A DNA stretch of 29,355 bases, from the IMG/VR virus record IMGVR_UViG_2541047722_000019; one strand, written 5' to 3'. The notes under the pieces are model-generated. The model did not search any database. It worked only from the letters and a program-made list of their open reading frames with translations, and was not told where the DNA came from. The number at the start of each line of letters is the position of its first letter. Within the stretch, counting starts at the first letter, position 1. Made by a program: the position numbers and the translations under genes. This document shows positions 5,446 through 21,951 of this stretch, in pieces. Origin of the DNA: a virus. Taxonomy: Duplodnaviria; Heunggongvirae; Uroviricota; Caudoviricetes.

Positions 5446-5891
5446 CAGTATTTCTCCAGTAAACCGTCACGACCGCCGAAAGTAGCCGGGCGACTGCGTA
5501 CACGAAACTCGCCAGGCTCAGGCACATCTTTCTGAGTGGACGGCAGCCCCAGCGTGAGCCTGTTATCACGTAACTCCCTGAGTTGCCGCAGCGCTTCTTT
5601 GTGGTCATCCTTCACCGTATCCGGGAGGTCACCTTCCGGGCGGCGGGCGTAGAGCCGGTAACGGACCAGCGTGATGGCAATGTCCCGCAGAACAGTCGGT
5701 ATCTCTGCCAGTGGCAGGATATAGCGTCCGCGCAGATGGGCATCAATCAGCTCGTCGGCATAGCGGATACAGCTGTCCACCACACGGGTATTCACTGTTG
5801 CAGGTGAGTCGAAGTCCATCTCTTCACTGGTGAGCTCGATAAGCGTCCGCTCCGGCACCTGCGCAAGCAAATCCTCCAGGGTGCAGTACAT
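5445..5891 (-). CDS. Head-tail connector protein (Mu gp36-like by position)
   Basis: The track ORF begins with TTG at 6053. The first ATG (5891) lies 1 nt after the upstream stop and gives a 148-aa protein starting MYCTLEDLLAQ. Confidence 0.5.
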   Translation of the reverse strand: MYCTLEDLLAQVPERTLIELTSEEMDFDSPATVNTRVVDSCIRYADELIDAHLRGRYILPLAEIPTVLRDIAITLVRYRLYARRPEGDLPDTVKDDHKEALRQLRELRDNRLTLGLPSTQKDVPEPGEFRVRSRPATFGGRDGLLEKY

Positions 5892-5892
5892 G

Positions 5893-6231
5893 TCACACCC
5901 CGCGCAGGATACGAATGACGTCGCCTTCACCCCCGGCTTCATCAAGTGCAATACCACAGGATTTACCGTCGCCGGACTGCGGCACGGCTCTGGCCTGAGC
6001 ATCTGACTGAACAGCCACACCACGGCTGACAGCGGCCCCGGCCTCGACAGCAATAATGCCCAGAACGCTCACCGGCGTGCTGTCGCCGGTAACAGCATCC
6101 ACTTCGGCAACCCCGAGCGCTGCGGCACCGGCTTTACAGGGGGTATTATCTGCCCCGACAAAACGCTGCTGTGCCAGTGCTGCCCCTGCCGTTACGGTTG
6201 TGATCAGAATGACCTGCTGAGTGGTTCCCAT
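5893..6231 (-). CDS. Small head-associated protein (Ala/Gly/Val-rich)
   Basis: 112 aa; ATG with AGGAGG upstream, directly after the major capsid gene. Confidence 0.55.
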   Translation of the reverse strand: MGTTQQVILITTVTAGAALAQQRFVGADNTPCKAGAAALGVAEVDAVTGDSTPVSVLGIIAVEAGAAVSRGVAVQSDAQARAVPQSGDGKSCGIALDEAGGEGDVIRILRGV

Positions 6232-17282: not shown

Positions 17283-17386
17283 CCATCGTCCCACAGAAGT
17301 GGCTGTGAGCCGACCGAGGTTCAGTCAGTCTCGCGAGACCAGACTAGCCTGCCATATTTTTAATAATTGTAAAAGGCTTACAGATT

Positions 17387-18151
17387 ATGAAAATGAAGAC
17401 ATTACCCATCGTTCCATGGATTGGTGGCAAACGTCGCCTGGCAAAACACATCCTGCCGCTGTTTCCGGCGCATGAATGTTATGTGGAGCCGTTTTGTGGG
17501 GCAGCAGCGCTCTATTTTCTTAAGACACCCGGCAAGATCGAAGTCATCAATGATATCAACGGTGAACTGGTGAATCTGTACCGGGTGGTAAAGCATCACC
17601 TGGAAGAATTTGTCCGCCAGTTCAAATGGGCGCTGGTCAGCCGTCAGATCTACAAATGGCTGCAGATCACCCCGGAAGAAACACTGACGGATATCCAGCG
17701 TGCGGCACGGTTCTACTACCTTCAGAAGCAGGCGTTTGGCGGCAAGGTGGCAGAGCACAGCTTCGGTACCTCCACCACATCCCCGCCACGCTTCAACCTG
17801 CTGCGTATTGAAGAAGAACTGTCAGCAGCACACCTGCGGCTTTCCAGAACAGTCATAGAACACATGGACTGGCAACAGTGCATTGAGCGTTATGATCGTC
17901 CGCACACACTGTTCTACTGCGACCCACCGTACCTGGGTACGGAAGGCTATGGTGTGGATTTTCCTGAAGGGAACTACTCGCGGCTGGCAGAGCTGGCCCG
18001 GTGCATCAGAGGAAAAATGATAATTTCGGTGAACGATATCCCACAGATGCGCGAGGTGTTCACTGGACTGAACATACAGACAGTGAACATCAACTACAGT
18101 CTGGCGGGGAAATCTACGCCGCGCCGTGAACTGGTAATCTGCAACTTCTGA
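17387..18151 (+). CDS. dam: N6-adenine DNA methyltransferase, Dam family (orphan, no adjacent restriction gene)
   Basis: N-terminal WIGGKRRL and VEPFCGAAALYF (SAM-binding motif I) plus FYCDPPY catalytic motif. 254 aa, close to E. coli Dam in size and motif order. Confidence 0.85.
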   Translation: MKMKTLPIVPWIGGKRRLAKHILPLFPAHECYVEPFCGAAALYFLKTPGKIEVINDINGELVNLYRVVKHHLEEFVRQFKWALVSRQIYKWLQITPEETLTDIQRAARFYYLQKQAFGGKVAEHSFGTSTTSPPRFNLLRIEEELSAAHLRLSRTVIEHMDWQQCIERYDRPHTLFYCDPPYLGTEGYGVDFPEGNYSRLAELARCIRGKMIISVNDIPQMREVFTGLNIQTVNINYSLAGKSTPRRELVICNF

Positions 18152-18181
18152 AACAAAACCGGAAAGCACAATGCTTTCCGG
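18151..18181 (-). terminator. Intrinsic terminator for the repressor transcript
   Basis: Perfect 10-bp stem CCGGAAAGCA / TGCTTTCCGG with 3-nt loop, followed on the minus strand by TTTTGTTT. Lies 87 nt after the repressor stop. Confidence 0.5.
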
Positions 18182-18267
18182 TAAACCAAACAACTTCCAC
18201 TATGTCACTGGCGATGTTTTCTGAAAGCATCCAGATCAACCACCTGTCCTTTGTGTCCAGGTCAAAA

Positions 18268-18606
18268 TCAGCCTGCGAGTTTGCTTGGTTTGGGTTGAAT
18301 GAAGACTTTGCCGACCTCAAGAATTGCCCTCCGTTGTTCGGGGCTCATTTCGTCGAATGCATCCATTAACTCTTTCTTTTCTTGTGACACATAAGGTGCA
18401 ACAACAGGCTGACTCCGCACCCCAGTAACTACATACAAAATATCTACACCGATTTCTGATAGTGCAGATAACTGCACTGCAGTAGGAGAAGTGCGATCTT
18501 TTTCCCAATCAATGAAAGTTCTCTTTGCCACACCTATAGCATCAGCCAACCCTTGCTGTGTAAGAGATAGACGCTCTCTTTCTTCTTTAATACGTAACCC
18601 GATCAT
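18268..18606 (-). CDS. Prophage repressor, HTH XRE family
   Basis: MIGLRIKEERERLSLTQQGLADAIGVAKRTFIDWEKDRTSP is a classic XRE helix-turn-helix. The track ORF starts with GTG inside the divergent ner-like gene; ATG 18606 is the likely start and has no obvious SD (possibly leaderless). Confidence 0.7.
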   Translation of the reverse strand: MIGLRIKEERERLSLTQQGLADAIGVAKRTFIDWEKDRTSPTAVQLSALSEIGVDILYVVTGVRSQPVVAPYVSQEKKELMDAFDEMSPEQRRAILEVGKVFIQPKPSKLAG

Positions 18607-18706
18607 GTGAGTTTTTCTGCACTCTTTAAGTTGACTGGTGAGGTAATCTGCACCATAATCTATCACACATAAGGCAAACATCATTGCATCAACAAAGGAG
18701 ACAACG
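18607..18706. promoter_or_regulatory. Switch region: early promoter and candidate operators
   Basis: Near-consensus sigma70 promoter on the plus strand: TTGACT (18631-18636), 17 bp, CATAAT (18654-18659). Direct repeats TCTGCAC at 18616-18622 and 18647-18653, the second inside the spacer. Confidence 0.45.
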
Positions 18707-18895
18707 ATGACTGCAGAACAAGTCAAAGCTCTCTTCCGCCAGCGCGGGATCACTTTCACCCGCTGGGCAGAAGAAAACGGCTACAACCGCAATGAGGTAT
18801 ACCGCGTTCTCAATGGGCAGACCAAAGCCCGTTACGGTAAATCCCATGAAATCGCCGTGAAGTTGGGGCTGAAATCAACAGCTCAGGCAGCCTGA
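18707..18895 (+). CDS. Ner/Cro-like small DNA-binding regulator
   Basis: 62 aa, AGGAG 6 nt upstream, first gene of the early operon divergent from the repressor. Residue pattern RQRGITFTRWAEENGYNRNEVYRVLNG parallels Mu Ner. Confidence 0.55.
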   Translation: MTAEQVKALFRQRGITFTRWAEENGYNRNEVYRVLNGQTKARYGKSHEIAVKLGLKSTAQAA

Positions 18896-18947
18896 AGATT
18901 TTGAGTCTTTGTAAAAGGTTATCACATATCGCAAAAGAGGTATGCAG

Positions 18948-19256
18948 ATGAGTAAGACGAATGTTTCAAGCTCCGGCAGTCGCATCCTCCGGGTACTCAA
19001 AGCGCTGCGCGGTCATGCCCTGAACGGTATTTCCAACGGTGAACTGGCGGCAGCACTGCACGAGTCACCGGCAAACATCAACCGGGCACTCAACACCCTC
19101 ATTGAAGAAGGGTTGGCCCTGAAACTGGAAAACGGGCGTTTCGCGCCGGGCATCCAGTTACTGCAGATCGCTATGGCCCACAGTAACGAGATGGCACGTG
19201 CACAGGATCGCATTAACGAAATCAACCAACGTGTCATTTCAGGTAGTCGTTTGTAA
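18948..19256 (+). CDS. Winged-helix-like small DNA-binding protein
   Basis: Segment RILRVLKALRGHALNGISNGELAAALHESPANINRALNTLIEEGL looks like a wHTH. Start taken at the second ATG (18948), which has better SD spacing to AAGAGG. Confidence 0.45.
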   Translation: MSKTNVSSSGSRILRVLKALRGHALNGISNGELAAALHESPANINRALNTLIEEGLALKLENGRFAPGIQLLQIAMAHSNEMARAQDRINEINQRVISGSRL

Positions 19257-19266
19257 GGAGTAATAA

Positions 19267-20178
19267 ATGGGACGCACCAAATCACCGATTAACACTGAAC
19301 TGAACGCCGAGGTACCGCTGTCGGATGATCTCAATGTCAGTCTGAACGCCATGACACAGCATCGTATGGAGATCATGCAGCAGTTTGGCGATGGTCAGCC
19401 CTATGAGCGTGATCGCATAGTTCATGAGGCTCGGTTTTATATGGCACAGAGCGCTGAGGCCATGCTGGAAGCAGGTAAACGACTTATTATTCTCAAAGAA
19501 AATGAACCTCACGGGGACTTTGTTGGAATTGTAGAAGAACAACTTGGTCTGCATGTGCGCGCAGCACAACGAATGATGAAAGCATCTTTGAAATACCTTT
19601 CACCAAAACTAGAGCCAAAAGCGACAACGTTGTCGCTTTTAGGTAAGGCAAAATTATTTGAACTTGTTGCTGAAGATGACGACGACCTTGCTGAACTGGC
19701 CGACGGTGGCACAGTTGCCGGACTGACGCTTGACGATGTTGATCGCATGTCAGTACGTGAATTGCGTCAGGCCCTGCGCGAAGCGCGCGAAACCAACGCA
19801 GCACAACAGCGCGTACTCGCCGACAAAAATGAAAAAATAGACTCACTCTCCACCAGACTGGAGAAGAAATCCCGTATTCAGCCACCTGAGCCTGATGAAG
19901 AGGTGAAGAAACTGCGGGCAGAAGTGACCGCGTTAGCGGTTGAGGCGGAATCTGCCATCGCCGTTCGACTGTCCAGCGCTTTTGAGACGCTGTGCGCATA
20001 TTGTGCTGAAAACATGATTGATACCCCCAGAGACTTCATGGCAGGCCTGGTCTGTCAACTGGAAAGCACAGCGCGTAGCCTGCGCTCCACATTTGACCTG
20101 CCGGACGAGCCAACAGGCAATGCAGCGCCTTCATGGCTGACTGAGCCGACGCCACAGATTAACGGGCTGGAGGCATAA
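19267..20178 (+). CDS. Hypothetical early protein, acidic with coiled-coil segments
   Basis: 303 aa, AAGGAG 6 nt upstream; stop 3 nt before the transposase ATG. No motif recognised. Confidence 0.5.
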   Translation: MGRTKSPINTELNAEVPLSDDLNVSLNAMTQHRMEIMQQFGDGQPYERDRIVHEARFYMAQSAEAMLEAGKRLIILKENEPHGDFVGIVEEQLGLHVRAAQRMMKASLKYLSPKLEPKATTLSLLGKAKLFELVAEDDDDLAELADGGTVAGLTLDDVDRMSVRELRQALREARETNAAQQRVLADKNEKIDSLSTRLEKKSRIQPPEPDEEVKKLRAEVTALAVEAESAIAVRLSSAFETLCAYCAENMIDTPRDFMAGLVCQLESTARSLRSTFDLPDEPTGNAAPSWLTEPTPQINGLEA

Positions 20179-20181
20179 CCA

Positions 20182-21951
20182 ATGAATGCTGCCCTGACTG
20201 AACGACTGGTTTATGTCGCCCGCGCGGCACGTGACGCGGGGCATGGTAAACGCGGCGCAGTATACGACGCTGCCTGTGCTGAACTTGGCATGTCCCGCGC
20301 CACTCTGCTGCGCAGGCTGAAGGAGGTATCTGTGACTGATAAACGCAAAAAACGCGCCGATGCCGGGCGCAGCGCCCTGACCCGCGACGAAGCCGCGCTG
20401 ATATCTGCCACACTGCGTGAGGCCACCCGCAAGAACGGTAAGCGTCTCTATTCCATCGCGGATGCAGTGGAAACCCTGCGGGCTAACGGCTTTATATCCG
20501 CAGGCAGAACAGATGAAACCACCGGTGAGTTTTTCCCGTTGTCCGAAGATGCCATCAGCCGAGCCCTGCGTAACTATGGCCTGCACCCGGAACAACTGGA
20601 TGCCCCTGCGCCGCATACCGAAGTGGCCAGTCTGCATCCCAATCATGTCTGGCAGATTGACGCCTCACTCTGCACGCTTTACTACCTGAGCAATGGACAT
20701 AAAGGGCTGCAGGTGATGGACAGCGCGAAGTTCTACAAGAACAAGCCCGCTAACCTTGCCCGTATCGCCAGTGACCGCGTGTGGAGTTACGAGATTACCG
20801 ACCATGCCAGCGGCTGGATTTACGTTGAGTATGTGACGGGCGCGGAATCAGGTGAGAACCTGTGTTCTGTGCTTATCAACGCCATGCAGGAGCGTGGCGG
20901 CGCAGACGTGCTGCACGGTGTGCCGAAAATACTCTATCTCGACCCCGGCTCGGCAAACACCGCGGGTATGACGAAAAACATGTGCCGCTCACTGGGCATC
21001 GACCTGATAGCGCACAAGCCGCATAACGCCCGCGCCACCGGACAGGTGGAAAAGGCGCGGGACATTATCGAACGCAAGCTGGAGCCGGGTCTGAAGTTCC
21101 GGCCGGTTCACAGTCTGGAAGAACTCAACGCGCTGGCCGCGAAATGGCGCAGCCACTTTAACGCCACGGCTGTTCACAGCCGCCACGGTAAAACCCGCAC
21201 GGATATCTGGCTGAAGATTACTGCTGAGCAGCTGAAAAAAGCGCCTTCCGTTGAGGTATGTCGTGAACTGGCTGTGGCGGCACCAGAACTCCGCAAAGTC
21301 ACGCCAAAACTTCGTGTCTCGTTCCGGGGCACTGAATTTGACGTATCAACGGTACCGGGCGTACTGGTTGGTGAAAAACTGATGATTACCCGTAACCCGT
21401 GGCGCAGCGATGTGGCACAGGTGGTTCTGACCGGTGAGGACGGCCACGAGACGTTCTTCCTGGTCGAAGAGGTCAGAAAGAACGAGTTTGGCTTTGCTGA
21501 AGGCGCGGCGGTATTTGGCGAAAGTTACAAAGCCCTGCCGGAAACCCCGGCGCAGATGGCGGCAAAAGAAACCGAAGCGCTGGTCACCGGTACAGACAAC
21601 GCCGCAGATGCAGCTGCCGCACGCAAGGCGAAGGCGCTGCCGTTCGGCGGGCGGCTTGACCCGTATAAACATATCGACGACACCACACTTCCGGCCTATA
21701 TGCCGAAGCGTGGTCAGGCCTCTGACGTACGCGGGCCGCGCACTGAACAACGTCCCATGACTTATGTGGAGGCCGCGAAAGCCCTGCGCGATAAGTTCAG
21801 CGCCAACGGCTTTACCTGGACGCCGGAACATTACCGCCAGTTAACGGCACAGTATCCGGACGGCGTACCGGAAGCCGCACTGGATGAAGTCATGGCCACG
21901 CTGACCACGCCGGCCCGCAGCAGCGTTATCAGTATTGTTAACGGCAACTGA
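20182..21951 (+). CDS. DDE transposase (retroviral-integrase fold)
   Basis: 589 aa. Catalytic triad candidates D in HVWQIDAS, D in LYLDPGS and E in GQVEKARD, with exactly 35 residues between the second D and the E. GGAGG SD. Confidence 0.85.
   Translation: MNAALTERLVYVARAARDAGHGKRGAVYDAACAELGMSRATLLRRLKEVSVTDKRKKRADAGRSALTRDEAALISATLREATRKNGKRLYSIADAVETLRANGFISAGRTDETTGEFFPLSEDAISRALRNYGLHPEQLDAPAPHTEVASLHPNHVWQIDASLCTLYYLSNGHKGLQVMDSAKFYKNKPANLARIASDRVWSYEITDHASGWIYVEYVTGAESGENLCSVLINAMQERGGADVLHGVPKILYLDPGSANTAGMTKNMCRSLGIDLIAHKPHNARATGQVEKARDIIERKLEPGLKFRPVHSLEELNALAAKWRSHFNATAVHSRHGKTRTDIWLKITAEQLKKAPSVEVCRELAVAAPELRKVTPKLRVSFRGTEFDVSTVPGVLVGEKLMITRNPWRSDVAQVVLTGEDGHETFFLVEEVRKNEFGFAEGAAVFGESYKALPETPAQMAAKETEALVTGTDNAADAAAARKAKALPFGGRLDPYKHIDDTTLPAYMPKRGQASDVRGPRTEQRPMTYVEAAKALRDKFSANGFTWTPEHYRQLTAQYPDGVPEAALDEVMATLTTPARSSVISIVNGN

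Follow-up and report, generated by a model that had tools for sequence, protein, structure and literature searches.

Transposable phages of the B3 and BcepMu type keep their immunity genes in a characteristic divergent arrangement. In B3 and Fc02 (Beetrevirus), as in the locus described here, the repressor gene repc (ORF18) diverges from the ner-like ORF17 across a short intergenic region with overlapping promoters, and ORF14, ORF13, the transposase and the ATPase follow. Strand-specific RNA sequencing of Fc02, a phage of the B3 family, found that transcription of the repressor begins at two promoters, the distal pC1 and the proximal pC2, the latter of which overlaps pE (PMC9936078). We analyzed positions 18,152 to 19,256 of the IMG/VR virus record IMGVR_UViG_2541047722_000019, whose full 29,355 nucleotides are referred to as the window. 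The window and two prototypes, Pseudomonas phage B3 (ORF18 / ORF17, 16, 15, 14, 13, 12, 11) and Burkholderia phage BcepMu of the genus Bcepmuvirus (gp17 / gp16 ... gp12, 11, 10, 9, 8), share the gene order repressor / gp16-like ... winged-helix, DUF3102, rve transposase, ExeA-like ATPase, and the proteins are homologous. The region is thus the lysis/lysogeny (immunity) switch of a transposable prophage of the BcepMu/B3 type in Escherichia coli (E. coli), and an ordinary member of the B3/BcepMu switch family. A preliminary description, made from the letters alone, had read it as a transposable-prophage immunity switch with three small DNA-binding proteins; gene order and homologues bear this out, and every feature that it named is present where it had been placed.

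We consider it quite probable that the switch is built from two repressor operators (O1 and O2) at the early promoter Pe, an auxiliary operator (O3) inside the repressor gene and a leadered repressor mRNA whose start codon has no Shine-Dalgarno (SD) sequence. The elements concerned are as follows.

18268-18606, minus strand: XRE immunity repressor of 112 amino acids (Pfam HTH_3).
18462..18477: O3, a perfect dyad GTGCAG-ATAA-CTGCAC (GTGCAGTTATCTGCAC on the repressor strand) in repressor codons 44-49 (VQLSAL); candidate auxiliary operator.
18607..18622: O1, a near-dyad (minus strand GTGCAGAAAAACTCAC) directly next to the repressor ATG and 8 bp upstream of the Pe -35.
18631..18659, plus strand: Pe, with TTGACT at 18631-18636, a 17-nt spacer and CATAAT at 18654-18659.
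18638..18653: O2, a near-dyad (minus strand GTGCAGATTACCTCAC) that fills 16 of the 17 Pe spacer positions, 31 bp from O1.
18707-18895, plus strand: helix-turn-helix protein of 62 amino acids, first early gene (TIGR04111), with the SD sequence AAGGAG at 18695-18700.

Pe is the near-consensus promoter TTGACT-17-CATAAT of the preliminary description. It matches the consensus at 10 of 12 positions, is the sole promoter-like site in 18100-19300 and was the only high scorer in a weight-matrix scan (12.4, against 12.0 for the 95th percentile of the best shuffle scores). Its position is conserved in relatives, and the expected transcript start is near 18666.

The heptamer TCTGCAC occurs at 18616-18622 and at 18647-18653, 31 bp apart, the second copy within the Pe spacer, and the repeat extends to 16 nt (GTGAGTTTTTCTGCAC and GTGAGGTAATCTGCAC). 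These heptamers had been described as direct repeats, and their spacing and placement stand as described. They are, in fact, the stronger arms of two 16-bp near-dyads, GTGC-N8-TCAC, and a third site had been missed. O1, O2 and O3 all fit the dyad GTGC-N8-(G/T)CAC, and O3 fits it perfectly. Neither the heptamer by itself (7 found, 5.05 expected) nor the minimal dyad GTGC-N8-KCAC (6 against 3.4) is enriched in the window. The pattern GTG-N7-CTGCAC has 5 matches where 0.34 are expected, a count reached by none of 100 shuffles, with three distinct sites within 192 bp. Because dyad counts are not enriched, the argument for operators rests on clustering and on conservation.

To assess conservation, we used a comparison set of loci encoding relatives of the repressor, taken from genomes and viral contigs. 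In the lineages with 57-94% repressor identity (Mixta, Symbiopectobacterium, Klebsiella and several viral contigs), O1 is kept beside the ATG while the surrounding bases vary, and an intact O2 lies in the spacer of all but Symbiopectobacterium, in which O2 is degenerate. O1 is conserved in lineages A, B and C even where the flanks and the neighboring gene differ. The Symbiopectobacterium lineage (L006/L007) has another Cro-like gene next to the repressor, yet retains O1 and O3.

Escherichia phage PhiKM, the closest isolated phage (filed under Bcepmuvirus), presents the converse case. Its gp16-like gene is essentially identical to that of the window, and homology is lost exactly between 18299 and 18654, where a single cassette with its own spacer dyad, TGCTCATAATTATGAGCA, takes the place of the repressor body, O1, O2 and the -35. 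Taken together, the cassette exchange in PhiKM and the retention of sites in L006/L007 indicate that the sites go with the repressor and with neither the Ner-like protein nor the promoter.

Many distinct relatives, B3 and BcepMu among them, are built on the same plan: a spacer dyad is followed by GTCAA, which is the -35 on the other strand, and then by a one-arm repeat 29-32 bp away that overlies the start of the repressor gene. Immunity types differ in operator sequence, and each has its own dyad. The repeats had been proposed as operators of the repressor, and this proposal gains from their conservation across lineages and from their change with repressor type while the Ner-like gene stays constant. 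The comparison thus supports the TCTGCAC-containing sites as predicted repressor operators, with the dyads at the regulated promoter co-varying with repressor specificity.

The limits of the shared sequence in PhiKM deserve a separate remark. The two sequences part within the 3' end of the repressor gene and match again precisely from the Pe -10 onward. The final ~10 codons of each repressor (...QPKPSKLAG in the window, ...QPKPGKIAG in PhiKM) belong to the shared sequence.

O3 is found at +129 in 5/5 lineages with GTGCAG-type operators and is absent from the other operator types. In four lineages, with 49-94% protein identity, it is identical and codons 44-48 are the same, whereas 27 of the 38 degenerate codons for invariant amino acids vary (permutation test of the run, P = 0.026 for the four lineages). 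Within the first 186 nt of the repressor gene, no other stretch of invariant nucleotides is as long (17 nt). In the IMG/VR contigs L050/L051, the intergenic operator is identical to O3 at 16/16 positions, asymmetric centre included.

Over -45 to +144 relative to the repressor start, the same two contigs have the SD sequence GAGGA in place of O1 and a perfect dyad as spacer operator. With this spacer operator identical to the intragenic site, they appear to represent a two-operator (O2 + O3) version of the switch.

An intragenic site is also present in the PhiKM-type repressor gene, whose product is 33% identical to that of the window. There, TGCTCA-N6-TGAGCA lies at +187; in four lineages at 64-100% identity both arms are perfect, whereas the six bases between them are variable. 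We estimate that a 12-base match of this kind would arise by chance in the 10.9-kb locus with a probability of <0.001. The centre-to-centre distances, which are compatible with looping in both types, are the following.

O1-O2: 31 bp in the window type, 30 bp in the PhiKM type.
O1-O3: 145 bp in the window type, 198 bp in the PhiKM type.
O2-O3: 176 bp in the window type, 228 bp in the PhiKM type.

These data raise the possibility, which we put forward tentatively and with some doubt, that two unrelated immunity types independently hold an operator copy in the repressor gene (at +129 and at +187), with a loop of ~175-230 bp, and that O1 displaced the repressor SD. Early-promoter repression, transcription of the repressor gene and, at the RNA level, a weak SD-less start of translation would then all be set by a single DNA element.

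Several observations weigh against the switch model as a whole or against its parts. Binding, repression, looping, autoregulation and the roles of the gp16-like and winged-helix proteins, which are all of its functional steps, are what we infer from comparison. A fourth match to the operator pattern (GTGCAG-N6-TCAC, GTGCAGTACATGTCAC) lies at 5881-5896, inside a late-gene coding region, so such matches do occur; we rejected this site as an operator, since it is 100% identical in PhiKM despite the different immunity type and is therefore probably a chance match. The O2-O3 distance ranges from 172 to 176 bp among lineages, which means that helical phasing is not strictly kept. For the repressor gene, the weight-matrix scan gave no sigma-70 promoter with statistical support. 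Once L015, the fifth lineage, is added, the codon run test for O3 is no longer significant (P = 0.32); the encoded peptide AVQLSALS is itself invariant; and most other immunity types are without an intragenic site, with no copies found in B3, in BcepMu or in most Pseudomonas-type relatives.

The last three of these points are what would be expected if O3 were not an operator and instead a by-product of selection on AVQLSALS and of shared gene ancestry. Such an origin is harder to reconcile with five consecutive degenerate codons being fixed where neighboring invariant residues use 2-4 codons, with an intergenic O2 in L050/L051 that equals O3 down to its asymmetric centre, and with the PhiKM type having its own operator elsewhere in its own gene, its arms perfect in four lineages and the match one that chance would hardly supply. 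We regard the by-product explanation as unlikely and an auxiliary operator as the better account of O3. Fewer grounds exist for a second alternative, in which the repeats at Pe are promoter features (an UP-element or the spacer) or gp16/Ner-like sites and not sites of the XRE repressor. The repeats do overlap the Pe spacer and the -40 to -60 region. However, their sequences differ with repressor type between PhiKM and the window while gp16 is constant, a different Cro-like gene beside the same repressor domain leaves them unchanged (L006/L007), and no immunity type is without a dyad of its own. We give this alternative hardly any chance, and retain the repressor as the predicted ligand of O1 and O2.

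A third alternative concerns the repressor transcript, which the preliminary description had suggested may be leaderless. In a lambda-like arrangement, the mRNA would begin at the A of ATG 18606, repressor bound at O2 would activate its own promoter and O1 would have the role of OR3. The lambda cI transcript from PRM is a known leaderless mRNA. At the present locus, O1 abuts the ATG, the O2 centre at about -39.5 from the ATG is near the position of a class II activator, and, as had been noted, the start codon has no recognisable SD: upstream of ATG 18606, anti-SD pairing reaches -2.4 kcal/mol at best, whereas the ner-like, winged-helix, DUF3102 and transposase starts have values of -7.1 to -9.3 kcal/mol. 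Nevertheless, the weight-matrix scan found no -10-like hexamer at 6-8 nt upstream of the ATG and none that ends 5-9 nt upstream of it, where the bases are AGAAAA/CAGAAA, and no minus-strand promoter of leaderless geometry. L050/L051, with the same DNA-binding domain, have the canonical GAGGA 8 nt upstream of the ATG in place of O1. In B3, BcepMu and Pseudomonas relatives, the repressor SD or start codon is inside O1, which implies a repressor mRNA with a leader, and the Fc02 transcripts from pC1 and the pE-overlapping pC2 are leadered. A leaderless transcript is thus improbable; the repressor start is SD-less and its mRNA is probably leadered.

A weak candidate for the promoter of such a leadered mRNA is present.

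18657..18665, minus strand: extended -10 TGaTAGATT, overlapping the Pe -10 on the other strand.

It scores 7.0, below the shuffle median maximum of 9.1, and is not statistically supported; TGnTAGATT is retained in lineages A and C and in PhiKM. We found no convincing distal repressor promoter resembling Fc02 pC1, and the RNA structure of the putative repressor leader is not out of the ordinary (z = 0.03).

In the mechanism that we favor, the 112-residue XRE repressor would bind O1 and O2, probably as dimers. The two sites, three helical turns apart, would sandwich the Pe -35, with O2 in the spacer and O1 over the upstream flank, and their occupancy would keep RNA polymerase off Pe. The early operon (gp16-like, winged-helix, DUF3102, transposase, ATPase) would thereby be silenced. 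O3 would most likely act as an auxiliary operator, either through a DNA loop that strengthens repression or as a block to transcription through the region. Since O1 abuts the repressor ATG and the repressor promoter would be at or beyond O2, the same occupancy could also throttle repressor synthesis by negative autoregulation. No supported repressor promoter was found, and this step consequently depends on where that promoter really is. The SD-less start would probably be translated weakly from the leadered mRNA. The gp16-family protein would serve as a Cro/Ner analogue, probably binding the CACAC-containing leader just 3' of the Pe -10, and the winged-helix protein is predicted to be a conserved early DNA-binding protein.

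The repressor has an N-terminal XRE helix-turn-helix (HTH_3, 31.7 bits against a Pfam cut-off of 23, residues 6-51), followed by a C-terminal region of ~50 amino acids. Its best PDB sequence relatives are the DNA-binding domains of P22 C2 and 434 repressor, and only generic XRE domains were returned. Neither Pfam nor NCBIfam detects an S24 peptidase (autocleavage) domain in the 112 residues; the protein is not of the cleavable Lambda CI/LexA type. RefSeq holds the same repressor sequence in two versions, as 112 amino acids from ATG 18606 (WP_000579778.1) and as 152 amino acids from TTG 18726 (WP_224154089.1), the longer of which overlaps the ner-like start. Homologues align from repressor residue 1-2, and the alignments support ATG 18606 as the true start, with the 112-residue form. 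We rejected the longer frames from TTG 18726 (Prokaryotic Genome Annotation Pipeline, PGAP) or ATG 18684: homologues begin MIGLR, and L006 has an in-frame stop just upstream. ATG 18684 also has no SD.

The 62-residue product of the first early gene scores 97.4 bits with TIGR04111 (cut-off 34) over model positions 1-55 of 55, and belongs to phrog_925; by these profiles it is a full-length member of the BcepMu gp16 family. The name Ner-like given to it previously fits its position, first in the early operon and divergent from the repressor gene, and by position it is a Ner/Cro analogue. The name does not fit its sequence: HTH_35, the Ner family, reaches only 17.9 bits (cut-off 25), the BLASTP comparison with Mu Ner is not significant (E 5.9), and the protein has no PDB sequence hit. 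The AlphaFold2 (AF2) model (predicted local distance difference test, pLDDT, 88.7) is a five-helix bundle. Its best Foldseek matches are 434 repressor and 434 Cro, at E values that are not significant (0.3 or worse), and none of the top 50 is named as a Ner entry.

Antisense to this gene, we noted a 52-residue open reading frame (ORF) at 18689-18847 on the minus strand. [quoted passage not shown]

Two conserved stretches are candidate binding sites of the gp16-like protein, an assignment that is inference only, drawn from motif likeness and conservation.

18660..18687, plus strand: Pe leader with CACAC-type motifs and GCAAACATCATTGC; candidate operator of the gp16-family protein.
18919..18936, plus strand: 18-nt island TTATCACATATCGCAAAA, conserved just upstream of the winged-helix gene.

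The leader, just 3' of the Pe -10, is common to immunity types that keep the same gp16 protein, and CACAC-type or related motifs occupy the same place in B3 and Pseudomonas relatives. The island is kept amid otherwise diverged intergenic DNA and is similar to CTATCACACATAAGGCAAAC, which lies at Pe +1 (18660-18679). The gp16-like protein may have a second site here, or the island may act as an internal control element.

The winged-helix protein matches HTH_IclR (27.3 bits, cut-off 22) and phrog_1368 (E 8.6e-45). Its ORF has two in-frame ATGs, at 18942 and 18948. The sequence AAGAGG lies 7 nt upstream of ATG 18948 and just 1 nt from ATG 18942, and homologues are 101-102 amino acids long, the same length as from ATG 18948 (102); this makes ATG 18948 the more likely start. 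In the AF2 model (pLDDT 90.5), a 32-residue C-terminal helix stands alone after the wing. The best Foldseek matches are IclR N-terminal domains (template modelling score, TM, 0.6-0.69; root-mean-square deviation about 2 A). The C-terminal effector-binding domain of IclR regulators (about 170 amino acids) is absent from the 102-residue protein, which therefore has an IclR-like DNA-binding domain without being a regulator of the IclR family. None of the top 50 Foldseek matches links it to the Mu repressor or to the DNA-binding domains of MuA. The gene had been called an extra one relative to the Mu layout. It is indeed absent from Mu proper, but B3 and BcepMu have it in the same gene order, and among B3/BcepMu-type phages it is a standard, conserved gene of the early core. 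Mu is not the right phage for comparison here, as the transposase is 68% identical to BcepMu gp9 and has no detectable similarity to MuA.

The remaining genes and elements around the switch are listed below, with the winged-helix gene for orientation.

17387-18151, plus strand: Dam methylase.
18158..18182, minus strand: intrinsic-terminator-like hairpin, an 11-bp stem followed by a T-run, 3' of the repressor gene.
18948-19256, plus strand: winged-helix protein of 102 amino acids (HTH_IclR; phrog_1368).
19267-20178, plus strand: DUF3102-like early protein, next gene of the operon (phrog_1748, E 1.9e-140).
20182-21951, plus strand: rve transposase of the BcepMu type (Pfam rve).
Gene after the transposase, plus strand: ExeA-like AAA ATPase.

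The hairpin sits in the gap between the convergent Dam methylase and repressor genes, and its stretch is kept in PhiKM (93.9% over 18101-18298). The DUF3102-like protein, which has a long charged stretch (around ELRQALREARE...RLEKK), is always encoded between the winged-helix gene and the transposase in B3/BcepMu-type phages. The ATPase start is ambiguous: the longest ORF begins at TTG 21935 and overlaps the transposase stop, and the PGAP start is 21962. No Rfam family was detected in 17300-20300. E. coli ABU 83972 and many other strains carry a prophage segment 100% identical to the 1.1-kb region, and the prophage type is matched in 622/5426 complete E. coli genomes, ABU 83972 and sequence type 131 (ST131) strains included.

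The anatomy, the homologies, the conservation and the co-variation of operator with repressor type are direct results of the computation. They yield exact coordinates of the predicted operators for a prophage type common in E. coli, correct an inconsistent RefSeq repressor start to the 112-residue form and describe an immunity cassette (repressor body, O1, O2 and -35) that is swapped as a whole and whose right-hand edge falls exactly at the Pe -10. Our literature search returned nothing specific on the mapping of operators in BcepMu/B3-type phages or on intragenic operators. The recurrence of an intragenic operator and the replacement of an SD by an operator are modestly new. If true, the intragenic operator would supply the B3/BcepMu switch with a looping element and could account for tight repression by a repressor that is small and has no cleavage domain. 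These results leave the general view of transposable-phage immunity as it was.

Among described systems, B3 has a gp16-like protein (ORF17) with 73%, a winged-helix protein (ORF14) with 56% and a repressor with 37% identity to those of the window. Like the window, it has a dyad in the pE spacer and a second site over the repressor start. The window differs from B3 in having no ORF15/ORF16 between the ner-like and winged-helix genes, an interval that in Fc02 holds gene 10 and the antisense olg1/olg2, and B3 differs in having no intragenic operator copy. BcepMu shares the operator architecture of the window, with 68% identity in the transposase, 44% in the DUF3102 protein (gp10), 45% in gp16 and 33% in the winged-helix protein (gp12). 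Compared with BcepMu, the window has fewer accessory early genes, another immunity specificity and E. coli as host.

Mu is alike in outline, with a repressor gene divergent from that of a small second repressor, followed by transposase and ATPase. As here, the c/ner/A/B region of Mu has several operators (O1-O3) over about 200 bp and no LexA-type cleavage domain. However, neither the Ner-like protein nor the transposase has detectable homology with its Mu counterpart, the Mu repressor is of another DNA-binding family, and Mu is without the winged-helix and DUF3102 genes. In contrast to Mu, the window has no match to the integration host factor (IHF) consensus WATCAANNNNTTR. The C protein of P2 is likewise a small XRE-type repressor without a cleavage domain, and same-polarity direct repeats, to which it binds, flank elements of the P2 Pe.

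For the intragenic site, the closest parallels are lac O2 in lacZ and gal OI in galE, auxiliary intragenic operators that act with DNA looping. The combination of a primary operator at the promoter and a distant copy inside a coding region 150-230 bp away resembles lac and gal. Unlike in those systems, the auxiliary site of the present switch would lie in the repressor's own gene.

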